Of a stretch of DNA of 6,188 nt, positions 712-6,188 are shown piece by piece. Position 1 is the first letter of the stretch. Each line of letters begins with the position of its first letter. The DNA is from a virus (lineage: Duplodnaviria > Heunggongvirae > Uroviricota > Caudoviricetes). The stretch lies in IMG/VR virus record IMGVR_UViG_2537561709_000010; one strand, 5' to 3'. Made by a program: the position numbers and the translations under genes. The notes beneath the pieces are model-generated. The model did no database searches. It was not told the DNA's origin and saw nothing but the letters and a program-made list of their open reading frames with translations.

Positions 712-1166
712 TACGCCTCCTGCTTGTCACGCAGCAGCTGGAACTCGCAGCTCTGCGGAATAGTCAGGTGGCAGCCAATATTCATCGCCCAGGCTTCAAC
801 CTTACACAGGAAGACATACATCTCTCCGGTATCAAGATCGGAGGTATGGCGTAACGACTGGATAGTGGTGATATCACCGGTTACGACATCAACCAGGTCT
901 TTGGTTTCATAACCGAGATATGTGTGTTTGAGAGCATCTTTTACCCAAGCTGGAGTGGCGAACGTTTTACCCCTGCTGATGAGGTATTCACTGATTTCGC
1001 TGTACCACATGTGGCTGAGTGCATTCTGGGAAAGACTGCGTTTCTCACGCCACGGTTTAAGCACCATGCGAAAGCATTTGCCCTCCTCCAGATAAGGCTG
1101 GATCTGCCGACCGATAGCGGTGAAGTTGCCGCGATGTAATTTGATGCCGTCTTGTGAGAGGTTCAC
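711..1166 (-). CDS. ybcN: YbcN, lambdoid nin-region protein reported as a DNA base-flipping protein (151 aa)
   Basis: Track ORF 711..1166: [32 protein letters not shown]... matches DLP12 YbcN as I recall it. The start codon is GTG (reverse complement of 1164-1166) with GGAGGTGA 3 nt upstream. Stop TAA at 713..711. Confidence 0.88.
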
Positions 1167-1264
1167 GCTTCACCTCCGCAGAGGTCAAACGCTAGATGCA
1201 AAGAATTGCAGGTGCATTTCTGCATCTGTGAAGGGAGAAGAGAGTTTGGATTGTATGTGCGCAT
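1163..1264 (-). CDS. ylcH: Small ORF (33 aa), likely YlcH-like
   Basis: Hand translation from ATG 1264..1262: [33 protein letters not shown], stop TGA 1165..1163 overlapping the ybcN GTG start (GTGA). Position and length agree with the 33-aa ylcH between ybcM and ybcN in DLP12; I cannot recall the reference sequence to confirm. Only a weak SD (GGGGA). Confidence 0.45.
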
Positions 1265-1287
1265 AAACGTCCCCGTTTAGCGCAGAA

Positions 1288-1316
1288 GTCACCGGAGTTG
1301 TTCAGGCTCCGGTGAC
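1288..1316 (-). terminator. Perfect 10-bp inverted repeat (GTCACCGGAG / CTCCGGTGAC, 9-nt loop); candidate terminator or regulatory hairpin downstream of ybcM
   Basis: Seen directly: 1288-1297 gtcaccggag, 1307-1316 ctccggtgac. It lies about 65 nt downstream of the ybcM stop and upstream of ylcH. On the minus-strand transcript the stem is followed by UUCUGCGC, which is not a clean U-tract, so terminator function is uncertain. Confidence 0.3.
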
Positions 1317-1380
1317 ATAATTATGCCGTGTTGATTTCCCAAAATCAAAATCGATAGAATTGCTCCTTCTTAAAACACTT

Positions 1381-2178
1381 TTACTCTCTGGAAGCTTTTC
1401 TTATCTCTCTTGGTGTTATATTAAAACGATTATGAAATCTTTCAGTAAAACGCGAAGGACACTTATAACCATTTTCTCTGGCAATCTCGCTTATAGGTTT
1501 TACCGTCGTTTGTATAGCAGACAACGCATTATTTAACCTCACATCGTCCAGTATACTTTGGAAACTTACCCCCTCGCTTGCTAGACGGCGATGTAATGTA
1601 GAAACAGAAATGTAGAGATATCGAGCAACCTTGTTTGCTGTCCATTTTGTGCCGGGTTCGGATAGCAGCAGGTTATAACAACGACTTATCAATGATTGTT
1701 TACTATATGATAAAAGTAAATGATTAACATGATTCACTCCTAACGAAAGTAGAACGCCCATTGCTAAGTGCTCCTGAATTTTAGTTGAGAAGCCTCGGGA
1801 AACAGATGTTTTTAGTTGCTCCCAACAATATATTAACTCAGGATTCTGAGGTAAAAAGAAACTTGTTTTGTTACGTATTTGATCAGTTACCGTATAAAGC
1901 TTTTGGAAACTCTCAATTAAATCAATGGGTAAGTAAAGCATTTCTGCAAGATAAAGCCCTGCTTCAGGATAATTCTCAATATAAAATTCATAACCACAAG
2001 GAAATAATATTATTTGATTATTATCAACAGTTAAAGTATGCGTCTCCCAATTGATAACTTTCTTTCCCTGACGGATACGACACAAAGCTGGCATAAGAGG
2101 CTTAACCCTATGAATCTCATGATGTTTATGCATCCGTATTTCTTCGATCTTTAAGTTAGTCTTACCTCTTGCCAGCAT
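1381..2178 (-). CDS. ybcM: AraC/XylS-family transcriptional regulator YbcM (265 aa)
   Basis: Track ORF 1381..2178. C-terminal helix-turn-helix region typical of AraC family (…[42 protein letters not shown]…[33 protein letters not shown]). ATG at 2178..2176, only 9 nt after the ybcL stop (TAG at 2190..2188). Confidence 0.88.
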
Positions 2179-2187
2179 ACTCTCACC

Positions 2188-2739
2188 CTACTTTATCTCA
2201 TAAACTGGTGTTATCTCAGCGGTTGCGATTTTATTAGCATTAAGCATATAACCAACTAACGCTCCGCTGGAGTTAGAATCTACAGGAATCTTTTCAGTTT
2301 TTAGAGCCCATACTTTAAACTGGTAATGATGTGGTTTATCTCCTTTAGGAGGACATGCGCCACCAAACCCAGCATAGCCAAAATCATTTCGGCCTTGAAC
2401 AGCACCAGTCGGCAGTTTTGTTCCATCACGTCTCCCTGCATCAACGGGCAAATATGTTACTGTTGCTGGAATATTAACAACAGTCCAATGCCACCAACCA
2501 CTGCCTGTAGGTGCATCTGGATCATATACAGTTACGGCAAAGCTTTTGGTACCTTCAGGAACACCAGACCAGGTTAATGAGGGCGATGTATTACCACCTT
2601 CACACCCAAATCCAGAAAAGACATGAGACGTTGTAAGTTGCTCTCCTGTTTTTATTTCATTACTAGCGACCTGAAATGCTGCAGCCTGCGCAGAAAATGT
2701 TATGAATGCCAATACAGTTGAAACGATAAGTGTTTTCAT
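2188..2739 (-). CDS. ybcL: YbcL, PEBP/RKIP (UPF0098) family protein with N-terminal signal peptide (183 aa)
   Basis: Track ORF 2188..2739. N-terminus MKTLIVSTVLAFITFSAQAAAFQ is a typical Sec signal peptide with an AQA-A cleavage motif. The rest matches DLP12 YbcL as I recall it. SD AGAGG lies 5 nt upstream of ATG 2739..2737. Confidence 0.88.
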   Translation of the reverse strand: MKTLIVSTVLAFITFSAQAAAFQVASNEIKTGEQLTTSHVFSGFGCEGGNTSPSLTWSGVPEGTKSFAVTVYDPDAPTGSGWWHWTVVNIPATVTYLPVDAGRRDGTKLPTGAVQGRNDFGYAGFGGACPPKGDKPHHYQFKVWALKTEKIPVDSNSSGALVGYMLNANKIATAEITPVYEIK

Positions 2740-2955
2740 AAAAACCTCTTTGTTATGACCTATCGTTATTTTATTTGATATTCCTTTATCTCATTATGCA
2801 TAAAGGCGCAATGTTCATGCAAAAGCAATCACAATTGTACCCCCAACCCAATTATTTGCCACAATATACACAAAGCACATTGATACTATCTAAAAACTCT
2901 GCTTTATTATTAGTAATACCTACGAAAGTCGGTGTTATTTTTTAACCTACCATTC

Positions 2956-3005
2956 AAAATACGTGACATACACCATTTTGCTCATAATAATTTGTCACGT
3001 ATTTT
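2956..3005. repeat. 50-bp dyad element: perfect 13-bp inverted arms (AAAATACGTGACA / TGTCACGTATTTT) around a 24-bp spacer
   Basis: Seen directly: 2956-2968 aaaatacgtgaca and 2993-3005 tgtcacgtatttt are exact reverse complements. Each arm carries an A4/T4 tract on its outer side, the arrangement of a bidirectional intrinsic terminator, but the spacer is long for a loop. About 200 bp downstream of the ybcK stop and 215 bp upstream of the ybcL start. Confidence 0.4.
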
Positions 3006-3203
3006 CAGTATTTGAATCTGCGACCAAGAGTTCTCACCTAACAAATGATTAAGATTGTATAGCTCATTTACTACCCCAATACAGCCGTACAAAACTCGCT
3101 TGTGGGAGCAAACAAAGTAATTACCCATTAAGTTTCGTTAAAGATAATTAATTCTGTCTTGCACTTTATCATCATAGCATAACTTAAAATCCGAGATCAT
3201 TAT

Positions 3204-4731
3204 TTAGAAATAAATCTCACCATCAACCATATATTTGAGAGCACTTATCGCCTGCTGGGCAGATATTACTTTCATTAAAGGATAGTGTTTAAAAACAATG
3301 CCATTCATAAAATAGATATCACAGGTTTTATTATCCGTATTAATTATGATTTTTTCGAATGTTTTATAGGCAAGTGTACGGCATAACTCTCGTCCATTTT
3401 TACTGGTTAAGTCAATAGCATAAAAATCACTGAATGAATTTACACCTTTACTCTTCAAAGTTTTCAATGATACCGAAGCCCTTCGTAATTCCTTATCTAA
3501 TAGTCTTATTTTCTCTGCTATAGCGGTAACTTCAGGCGCGACAGACAATGCAACGATTAAATTATTAATTTTCATCTGAAGCTCAATAATTTTTAACTCT
3601 AAAGTTTCATTAGCATCTTTCTTGTTTTCAACTGGTTGAATTTTGCTACAATTAAAAAGCAATTCATTAATGATATTATAATCAACCAAATCTCTCTTTA
3701 TTGATGGCCTGTCACATCGATGTAATCTTCTCATCGGACAAACATAATAGCCATGCAAACTTCCAGATACCGCATGAACAATCATGGTATTACCACAAGC
3801 CTCACACTTCATAACTGTTCGAAGTAGATTTATTAGCATAGGATTCTTGCTACTATTGCTAATACCAAAAGGTGCCAACCGAATTTCCTGTACAGCGTAA
3901 AACAAATCATCTGATATGACTCTGGGATAATAGCCAGCGATTTCACTTATCCCTTTCCCTCTTGCACGATATGAAGGTACGCATATACCTATCAGAGCTT
4001 TATTCGCTAATAATTTTTCAATTACAGAAGGCCCCCATGCACTTTTCTTTTCCTGAGAAATTCTTTACAGCATGATCATTTAAATACTTGGCTATTGCAT
4101 TCAATGAGCGCCTTTCCATCCTGAGTTTAAAAATTAGCTCAATAGTTTTCACCCTGTCGGGGTCTGGAACAAAAGCCGTTCTTTTGTCATCTAAGGAGAG
4201 CCATCTCGGACAAGACGCCGTCATAATCGTACCTGATTCCAGTGCATCCTGCCGTTTTTTCTTCCATGATAATTTAACCCGACTTGACTTTATCTCGCTT
4301 TCTTCATTTGCCCTTTGTGCTATAAGTATGGCTTTTATTAATGAATATGGCTCATTCAAAGAGTCAATATTATAGACTGTATTGTCGCAAAGAGTTATAA
4401 CATCAATACCGTGATTCAAAATCAATTTCAGACGTTCAATCGCTTCACCGACTTTTTCTCTTGAAAGTCTGTCCAGACTTTCAACTAACAATGTAGTTCC
4501 TGGCAATATATAACCATGCTCTATAGCATCTAAAAATTCCGAAAAAGCTCCTGATTGTGCATGCTTTCCTTTGAATGCACTTAATCCTAAATCTTCATAT
4601 GTTATGGTATCAAGATAATAATCACTATTTACCTTTAACCATTCAGCAATAAGTCTTCTCTGTCGGTTTAATGAGTCGCCAGACATCTGACCTGGTGATG
4701 AAAATCGCATATATGCTATGGCTTTTTTCAT
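3204..4731 (-). pseudogene. ybcK: Large serine recombinase (ybcK-like), interrupted by a +1 frameshift in this sequence
   Basis: Two same-strand ORFs: 4018..4731 carries the resolvase catalytic domain (YMRFSSPGQ with the presumed catalytic Ser; ESLDRLSR motif), and 3204..3905 carries a zinc-ribbon (CEACGNTM…HGYYVCPMRRLHRC) and coiled-coil region. The downstream frame stays open upstream to 4067, so both frames are open across 4018-4067. Total span is 1528 nt (3x509+1), consistent with a 508-aa protein carrying one extra nucleotide. Confidence 0.7.
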
Positions 4732-4975
4732 GGTGACACCTGCTAACTTATGCTTTTATAAACCTTAGTGGTGAGATATAATTTTTGTTTAATTTTTATT
4801 TAAAAAGACAATTACGATCACACTATCTTGAATATACAACAATAATCGTATTGCAATTTGCTTACGCAATAATCTTGAAGGCACAAAAGAATACACAAAA
4901 ACTAAAAACATTAACAAAAGCGGCCCATGTAAAGATATGAACCGCCATATTGCAGTCTTTTAAAAGAAATTATTT

Positions 4976-5308
4976 TTAATGTGGTGTGCTTCGTGACAAT
5001 AAATTAATAACCAACACACCGGCACAAATCAACATCATGCCTATAACGGCTGGCAGGTCCAGCCGTTGGCCGAAAAACCCCCATGATAGTAAGCTAATCA
5101 GGACAATACCGACTCCTGACCAGATAGCATAAGCAATCCCTGTAGGAATATAAGCCAGCGTCTGAGCTAATAACCAGAATGATGCACAATAACAAATAAT
5201 TGTACCAACAGATGGCCATAACCGTGTAAAACCTTCTGAAAACTTCATTAAGGTTGTACCAATGACCTCTGCAAGTATTGCACCACCAAGATAAATATAA
5301 GGGTTCAT
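4976..5308 (-). CDS. emrE: EmrE, small multidrug resistance (SMR) family efflux transporter (110 aa)
   Basis: Track ORF 4976..5362; from the internal ATG 5308..5306 the protein reads MNPYIYLGGAILAEVIGTTLMKFSEGFTRLWPSVGTIICYCASFWLLAQTLAYIPTGIAYAIWSGVGIVLISLLSWGFFGQRLDLPAVIGMMLICAGVLVINLLSRSTPH, matching EmrE including the conserved membrane-embedded Glu (KFSEGF). The 18 extra N-terminal codons in the track are not part of the known protein. Confidence 0.9.
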   Translation of the reverse strand: MNPYIYLGGAILAEVIGTTLMKFSEGFTRLWPSVGTIICYCASFWLLAQTLAYIPTGIAYAIWSGVGIVLISLLSWGFFGQRLDLPAVIGMMLICAGVLVINLLSRSTPH

Positions 5309-5323
5309 AACATATTCTTTCCT

Positions 5324-5358
5324 GTTCAAACTGGAGAGAATTGTACTACAGTTTGAAC
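5324..5358 (-). promoter_or_regulatory. Perfect 10-bp inverted repeat (GTTCAAACTG / CAGTTTGAAC, 15-nt loop) in the ren–emrE spacer, just upstream of the emrE ribosome-binding site
   Basis: Seen directly: 5324-5333 gttcaaactg, 5349-5358 cagtttgaac. On the minus-strand transcript the hairpin is followed directly by AGGAAAG and, about 10 nt on, the emrE ATG (5308). No U-tract follows, so it is not a canonical intrinsic terminator. Confidence 0.3.
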
Positions 5359-5375
5359 TCAACTCACCTGTTTCA

Positions 5376-5678
5376 TCATTGTGTACCCATTGATGTTCTT
5401 TTATATACCCTCAATACCCGTTTCATCGCGGCACTCTGGCGACACTCCTTAAAAATCAGATTCGTGCTCACCTTTCCTTCCCGTTCTTCTCTGGTAGCGA
5501 ACCGGTAATACACCGTTCGCCAGACCTTACCATCAACGACCAGGATTCCTGCCCGCGCCATTTTAGCCGCAGCCTGATTTATGCTGGTTACGGTTGCGCC
5601 TGTTACCGCGGCAACGTCCTGTGCACAGAAGCTCTTATGCGTCCCCAGGTAATGAATAATTGCCTCTTTGCCCGTCAT
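5376..5678 (-). CDS. ren: Ren protein, lambda ren homolog (100 aa)
   Basis: Track ORF 5376..5678: MTGKEAIIHYLGTHKSFCAQDVAAVTGATVTSINQAAAKMARAGILVVDGKVWRTVYYRFATREEREGKVSTNLIFKECRQSAAMKRVL… is near-identical to lambda Ren over about 90 residues, with a different C-terminal tail. ATG at 5678..5676 overlaps the P stop (ATGA). Confidence 0.85.
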   Translation of the reverse strand: MTGKEAIIHYLGTHKSFCAQDVAAVTGATVTSINQAAAKMARAGILVVDGKVWRTVYYRFATREEREGKVSTNLIFKECRQSAAMKRVLRVYKRTSMGTQ

Positions 5679-6188
5679 ACACTTGCTCCTTTCAGTCCGA
5701 ACTTAGCTTTAATTTCTGCGATCTTCGCCAGAGCCTGTGCACGATTTAGAGGTCTACCGCCCATAACAGGAAGTTGTTTTACTGGTTCAGGTATCGTCTC
5801 ACCACGGTTAATTCGCGCTGTCATACAGGTCAGTTCATCGGCAGCCTTGCGCCGTAATTCCGCGTCAGTCAGCGCATTGGCCCGCATGTTCTGGTACAAG
5901 TTGGTAACCAACCAGTAATGCGCGTTCGATTTCCACGGATAAGACTCTGCATCCGGATACAGGCCACGCTTCCGGCAATACTCGTAAACCATATCAACCA
6001 GCTCGCTGACGTTTGGCAGTCCGGCGATAACGGATGCTTCTTCCCGGCACCATGCAACAAACTGCCCGGGTGATGGCAGGAATGGTCGATTCTGCCGACG
6101 GGCTACGCGCATTCCTGCGTTAACCTGTTCCATTGTGGTGATCCCGTTTTCCCGGAAAGCCAGAACCCACTGGCGGCGGATTTCGTTC
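5675..6188 (-). CDS. P: Replication protein P, lambda P homolog, C-terminal part (5' end beyond window)
   Basis: Track ORF 5675..6133 (MEQVNAGMRVARRQNRPFLPSPGQFVAWCREEAS…KAKFGLKGASV) matches the C-terminal ~150 aa of lambda P. The frame stays open upstream to the window edge; hand translation of 6134-6187 gives NEIRRQWVLAFRENGITT, which also matches lambda P. Stop TGA at 5677..5675. Confidence 0.85.
   Translation of the reverse strand, partial: NEIRRQWVLAFRENGITTMEQVNAGMRVARRQNRPFLPSPGQFVAWCREEASVIAGLPNVSELVDMVYEYCRKRGLYPDAESYPWKSNAHYWLVTNLYQNMRANALTDAELRRKAADELTCMTARINRGETIPEPVKQLPVMGGRPLNRAQALAKIAEIKAKFGLKGASV

Follow-up and report, generated by a model that had tools for sequence, protein, structure and literature searches.

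Contig KB004340.1 of Escherichia coli 97.1742 raises the question of whether a known prophage gene, ybcK, has been inactivated by mutation in this strain, is read from two open reading frames (ORFs) in some functional arrangement, or appears split because of an error in the deposited sequence. The entire contig, 6188 bp in length (draft assembly GCA_000316725.2), is the stretch of DNA analysed here and is referred to below as the window. From position 67 on, the window is filled by a segment of a DLP12-type lambdoid prophage in which every gene is on the minus strand, in the order replication gene P fragment, ren, emrE, ybcK, ybcL, ybcM, ybcN, ninE, ybcO and rusA fragment. The features on which the question turns are the following:

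1-70 (no strand assigned): internal katE fragment that runs into mid-rusA, the two overlapping by 4 nt (67-70)
3204-4731 (minus strand): ybcK, large serine recombinase gene of the DLP12-type lambdoid prophage, 1528 nt as against 1527 nt in references
4018-4731 (minus strand): ORF1, 237 aa, running from 4731 to 4018 with a TGA stop at 4018-4020, deposited as EKW75872.1
3204-4064 (minus strand): downstream (+1) frame, 286 open codons, bounded on its upstream side by a TAA at 4065-4067
4021-4064 (minus strand): 44-nt zone in which both frames are open, between the TAA at 4065-4067 and the TGA at 4018-4020
4043-4046 (no strand assigned): indel site, a plus-strand T4 (A4 on the coding strand) as against three in references, at codon 229

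The ybcL gene, at window positions 2188-2739 on the minus strand, is an intact ORF of 183 aa. The genes recorded for KB004340.1 omit it, and a 40-aa antisense ORF stands there instead.

The gene that is split can be named with little difficulty. Of 5426 complete E. coli genomes searched with the gene by megablast, 1398 gave a near-full-length match, with the best matches annotated as "ybcK: recombinase family protein" and 1527 nt in length; compared to the annotated ybcK of O157:H7 genomes, the window gene is 99.9% identical over its full length. Its neighbourhood is also kept (ren and emrE upstream; ybcL, ybcM, ybcN, ninE, ybcO and rusA downstream), as determined from the annotation of reference loci, the window ORFs and Pfam families. 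This gene order, ren-emrE-ybcK-ybcL-ybcM-ybcN-ninE-ybcO-rusA, is shared with ybcK (b0544) of the E. coli K-12 DLP12 cryptic prophage and with the orthologue WP_000709082.1. In the one functional paper found, ybcK of BL21 is 1527 nt in length and is listed as a gene of unknown function (PMC7181518). Judging from these sequence comparisons, ybcK is an already known and annotated gene that encodes a putative large serine recombinase of a cryptic prophage.

The intact reference protein has three Pfam domains: a Resolvase domain (PF00239, residues 4-161, E = 5.5e-19), a Recombinase domain (PF07508, residues 191-284, E = 2.3e-14) and a recombinase zinc ribbon (Zn_ribbon_recom, PF13408, residues 302-357, E = 7.9e-08) with the cysteine pattern CxxC...C-x6-C. 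The Resolvase match is retained in ORF1 of the window (E = 2.1e-19), the translation of which includes AYMRFSSPGQ (Y-x-R-x-S; R9 and S11) and ESLDRLSRE (D-R-x-x-R, here D-R-L-x-R). We take these two motifs to be catalytic, as they are in enzymes of the resolvase/invertase type. YbcK also matches the phage integrase family phrog_95 (E = 4e-120) and, weakly, the NCBIfam XisF model (46.9 bits, compared to a cutoff of 375). Searched by sequence against solved structures, intact YbcK had no match at E <= 0.001. The Resolvase-Recombinase-zinc ribbon architecture and the YMRFSS...Q and DRLSR motifs are shared with integrases of the phiC31, Bxb1 and A118 type and with XisF. Unlike the large serine integrases, YbcK is encoded in the nin region; in prophage copies located next to icd (described below), a separate gene is annotated as "site-specific integrase".

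Measured from its ATG to the final stop, the window ybcK is 1528 nt in length, or 3n+1. When the window gene is aligned globally with ybcK of E. coli O157:H7 7386WT (1527 nt), the two differ in just two places. At window position 3696 there is a synonymous G/A substitution. The second difference is an inserted A: where the reference reads GGAAAAG-AAAG, the window reads GGAAAAGAAAAG, so that the coding-strand run GAAAG becomes GAAAAG and the plus-strand T3 becomes T4. The inserted base is gene position 686 and adjoins another A4 run on the coding strand. When one A is removed from the window ybcK, the predicted protein is identical to WP_000709082.1, the YbcK of O157:H7, at 508/508 residues. 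As the two ORFs align end to end with ybcK, they are not a chance pair.

These results bear out most of a preliminary description made from the letters of the sequence, in which the locus was read as a large serine recombinase, with intact homologs of approximately 508 aa, that a frameshift of one nucleotide has split at a homopolymer-rich site. The ORF map and the alignment agree that two ORFs lie on the same strand one nucleotide out of register, and the alignment and the intact single-ORF homologs support the reading as a whole. The description had both frames open between 4018 and 4067, which is essentially correct, the strict limits being 4021 and 4064. It also proposed three plus-strand runs as candidate slip sites (C5 at 4032-4036, T4 at 4043-4046 and T4 at 4048-4051), all of which are present. 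The comparison that it recommended, with homologs of approximately 508 aa, places the indel in the second of the three.

The frameshift falls at residue 228/229, within the Pfam Recombinase domain (191-284), and cuts the PF07508 match in two. ORF1 consists of 228 native residues followed by nine that are out of frame (KCMGAFCN after a shifted K), and it contains the catalytic domain together with positions 1-38 of the recombinase-domain profile. The remainder of that domain (profile positions 34-99), the zinc ribbon and the C-terminal region are encoded in the downstream frame. In all of the references these domains are on one continuous polypeptide; in the window they are not. The preliminary description had characterized ORF1 as a catalytic domain lacking its DNA-binding region: the catalytic domain is indeed there, but the boundary is not a clean one, given the approximately 38 recombinase-domain residues and the nine out-of-frame residues that ORF1 also carries. 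Translation of the downstream frame could begin no earlier than a TTG at 3905, which lies 53 codons inside it and is not preceded by any obvious Shine-Dalgarno sequence.

The split allele appears to be confined to this contig. In a 131-bp stretch around the site, the extra base is present in 0 of 1402 complete E. coli genomes, the best identity (99.2%) corresponding to one gap. The exact 33-nt pattern of the frameshift allele has 0 matches in each of three collections (genome_contigs, metagenome_contigs and viral_contigs), and an exact-protein look-up across 153 billion gene positions records the exact 237-aa product for KB004340.1 alone. At the indel site, six E. coli reference loci, comprising both O157:H7 prophage copies and two further E. 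coli genomes (ECDA1023 and ECGI0523), all read GGAAAAGAAAGTGC. A more distant homolog from Atlantibacter sp. RC6, 60% identical, is a single ORF of 509 codons; it conserves W-PSVIEKLL-NKALIGIC, the motif that follows closely after the site, and A-runs are lacking from its DNA at the site itself. The two-ORF arrangement is not the normal state of this family, as every reference examined has a continuous frame.

Short proteins listed in the same 90% cluster were considered as further instances of the frameshift and rejected: they carry the normal SGKESAWGPS sequence and are cut short by contig ends. Another member of the cluster, P0002 (298 aa), departs from the normal sequence in its tail, a long way downstream of the indel site.

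Many of the YbcK fragments from draft assemblies (P0003, P0004, P0008-P0010 and P0012) stop at residues 227-254, near the frameshift site. The two copies of the region in TR01 differ (G/A) at window position 4032, which is 14 nt from the indel site. Our guess is that short-read contigs seem to break near this site because of the paralogs. The first 70 residues of YbcK are also encoded, at 100% identity, on a 253-nt contig with a coverage of 0.84 (L009) in an assembly of Alkalicoccobacillus porphyridii; this contig is almost certainly E. coli contamination.

It could be supposed that the two-ORF layout is functional, with full-length YbcK restored through transcriptional slippage or programmed +1 ribosomal frameshifting, with an A-run that is phase-variable, or with an enzyme made in two pieces. 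All that speaks for this is the bare geometry, a 44-nt zone open in both frames that holds short homopolymers. Each of the three versions meets specific objections, however. We rejected a conserved programmed frameshift because the two-frame arrangement occurs in 0 of the 1402 genomes and gives 0 matches in the three collections, and because the Atlantibacter homolog, like the E. coli references, is a single ORF, with DNA that is devoid of A-runs at the site; moreover, a +1 shift would be required, and no prfB-like shifty-stop context is visible. A phase-variable locus was rejected because there is no long tract: references have 3 nt and the window 4 nt, the run was seen at no further length, and the 1402 genomes show no length polymorphism in it. 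Phase variation and transcriptional slippage depend on tracts far longer than 3-4 nt. A natural split gene or two-piece enzyme was rejected because homologs do not share the arrangement, because translation could not restart in the downstream frame for want of a start codon within 53 codons, and because the break cuts through the recombinase domain rather than between domains. Taken as a group, we regard these functional layouts as highly improbable. Barely conceivable, in our estimate, is that the insertion is real and that its truncated product (catalytic domain, helix E and recombinase-domain stub) is functional, for example by modulating an intact paralogous YbcK made from the second prophage copy of the same cell, or that the A-run acts as a low-frequency on/off switch.

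With a functional layout set aside, the choice is between a real inactivating mutation and a homopolymer sequencing error. The preliminary description had drawn this same dichotomy, rightly; a singleton allele on a chimeric contig with signs of paralog collapse leans toward error. The state of the contig bears on this choice. Bases 1-70 have 100% identity to katE, the chromosomal gene for catalase HPII, in more than 500 genomes, and bases 67-140 correspond to the middle of rusA. Of the 5426 complete E. coli genomes, 0 span the katE-rusA junction, which most likely reflects a mis-join or a chimeric read.

The prophage portion of the contig is itself composite. O157:H7 genomes hold two copies of the region: one bears ybcL and ybcM (L001 and L004), and the other is adjacent to icd and lacks both (L003 and L005). 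The first 1035 nt of ybcK are identical between the two prophage copies. Window positions 775-3695 match the ybcL/ybcM-bearing copy exactly, and positions 67-774 and 3696-6188 track the icd-adjacent copy; within these icd-type flanks, isolated alleles of the other copy are found at 6080, 5598, 756, 668, 663 and 643. This mosaic haplotype is matched by no complete genome, the best identity being 98.8% for the whole window and 98.5% for positions 1-1300. The best match to window positions 3690-5700 has one mismatch and a gap, as inferred from the bit score. Because the alleles interleave on a scale of tens of bases, their pattern suggests that the contig is a consensus of collapsed repeats, with natural gene conversion being less likely. 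The extra A is the sole contig-private change, every other difference from the references being the allele of one or the other copy. The contig is, then, chimeric at one end and a mosaic of paralogs.

The spacer between emrE and ybcK, at window positions 4748-4967, is the stretch in which the two copies are most divergent (approximately 86% identity; an indel of 10 nt lies near 4920). This spacer contains a small gene, ylcJ, annotated as frameshifted, in the ybcL/ybcM-bearing copy and an intact 40-aa hypothetical gene in the icd-adjacent copy.

Our preferred reading, to which we assign a probability of roughly 0.7, is that the extra A is probably an error of base calling or consensus building in a draft contig that is of low quality and derives from a repeat. 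We infer an artefact from the deposited sequence and its comparisons, and favour it because the allele is a singleton in the collections searched and because the contig is chimeric and mosaic. The corrected protein, being identical to its reference throughout, shows no other sign of decay, which also counts for an artefact. A one-base change in the length of a short homopolymer beside a run of the same base is a typical error of flow-based sequencing. The window resembles known cases of homopolymer error in collapsed draft contigs in several respects: a gain of one base, a short contig from a prophage repeat, a foreign 70-nt end and mixed paralog alleles. It differs from typical homopolymer errors in that the run is short and is located where collapsed coverage should be high. 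Three points accordingly weigh against an artefact: an A3 is short for a homopolymer miscall; at a site where the copies are identical, collapsed coverage should be higher and a random consensus error less likely; and cryptic-prophage genes do decay.

An example of such decay is found in the sister copy of this gene:

L003 4380-5902: ybcK pseudogene of TR01 (EEL45_RS07835), annotated "frameshifted"

This icd-adjacent ybcK has a 4-bp deletion (TTGC) at gene positions 1070-1073, equivalent to window positions 3659-3662. The icd-adjacent ybcK is intact in CDC#03-98 (L005 5470-6996), and in other finished genomes an unnamed "recombinase family protein" is annotated at the icd-adjacent locus. Since the finished TR01 genome carries this genuine deletion in the sister gene, real decay of ybcK happens. 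The TR01 pseudogene is comparable to the window gene in that a small indel disrupts the same gene in both, the first 1035 nt being identical; they differ in that the TR01 lesion is a deletion of 4 bp in a finished genome, whereas the window lesion is a +1 insertion at position 686 that is found nowhere else.

The main alternative is a real, recent, strain-private +1 insertion that inactivates ybcK in one prophage copy of 97.1742, which would be unremarkable for a decaying cryptic-prophage gene. The insertion is present in the sequence as deposited, short A-runs are natural sites of slippage, the paralogous ybcK is a true frameshift pseudogene in complete genomes (the TR01 deletion), and the absence of amino-acid changes elsewhere fits a very recent event. 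However, such an insertion must be private to one strain among all of the assemblies indexed; the contig that bears it is chimeric at one end and interleaves paralog alleles; and nothing else in 6.1 kb is private, the one private change being an indel and not a substitution. In draft assemblies of that period, by our own estimate, error frameshifts are expected to exceed, per gene, real frameshifts that are private to a strain. We consider a real insertion possible but unlikely.

If the sequence is taken at face value, the lesion would simply make a null allele. Translation would end once 228 native and nine aberrant residues had been added, and the truncated product would keep the serine-recombinase catalytic domain and be deprived of the zinc ribbon, the C-terminal region and the greater part of the recombinase domain. 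Large serine recombinases need their zinc ribbon, recombinase and C-terminal regions for site binding. With 53 codons of the downstream frame to pass before a start codon is reached, a second functional polypeptide would not be expected.

The preliminary description had further suggested that an inactivating mutation would fix a block of cargo genes in place. The emrE, ybcK, ybcL and ybcM genes do form an AT-rich island (approximately 1200-5400), with a GC content of 31-45% compared to 50-55% in the surrounding nin-region lambdoid DNA. No direct or inverted repeats of note that might represent att sites or inversion boundaries flank ybcK or the island in the window: a repeat search around them gave only matches of 14-28 nt with 71-93% identity, which are chance-like. 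In the icd-adjacent copy, ybcK is present without ybcL and ybcM. The Atlantibacter sp. RC6 homolog occupies the same nin-region position, among O, P, a C5 methylase, the recombinase, DinI, DUF1367, NinG and Q, and none of the emrE, ybcL and ybcM cargo genes is beside it. We rejected ybcK as the mobiliser of the emrE/ybcL/ybcM block on these grounds (no flanking repeats, and ybcK without the cargo in both the icd-adjacent copy and Atlantibacter), and the suggestion that the lesion locks the block in place finds no support. In the literature found, YbcK has no known att sites and no reported recombination activity.

The Atlantibacter sp. RC6 locus (L008 3818-7530) encodes a 687-aa C5 cytosine methylase, followed by the YbcK homolog and then by a DinI-like gene. 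It represents another accessory gene set at the same lambdoid position.

Relative to ybcK of K-12 and O157:H7, then, the window alone has an extra A at codon 229 that splits the ORF. This is an ordinary case, an artefact or the routine private pseudogenisation of a known gene, and is probably not biological in origin. The fusion of katE to rusA and the mixture of alleles mean that single-base features on KB004340.1 need confirmation at the level of the reads, and the contig is unsuited to inferring gene content or recombinase status. Were the mutation real, it would mean that one strain has merely lost a recombinase without a known role.
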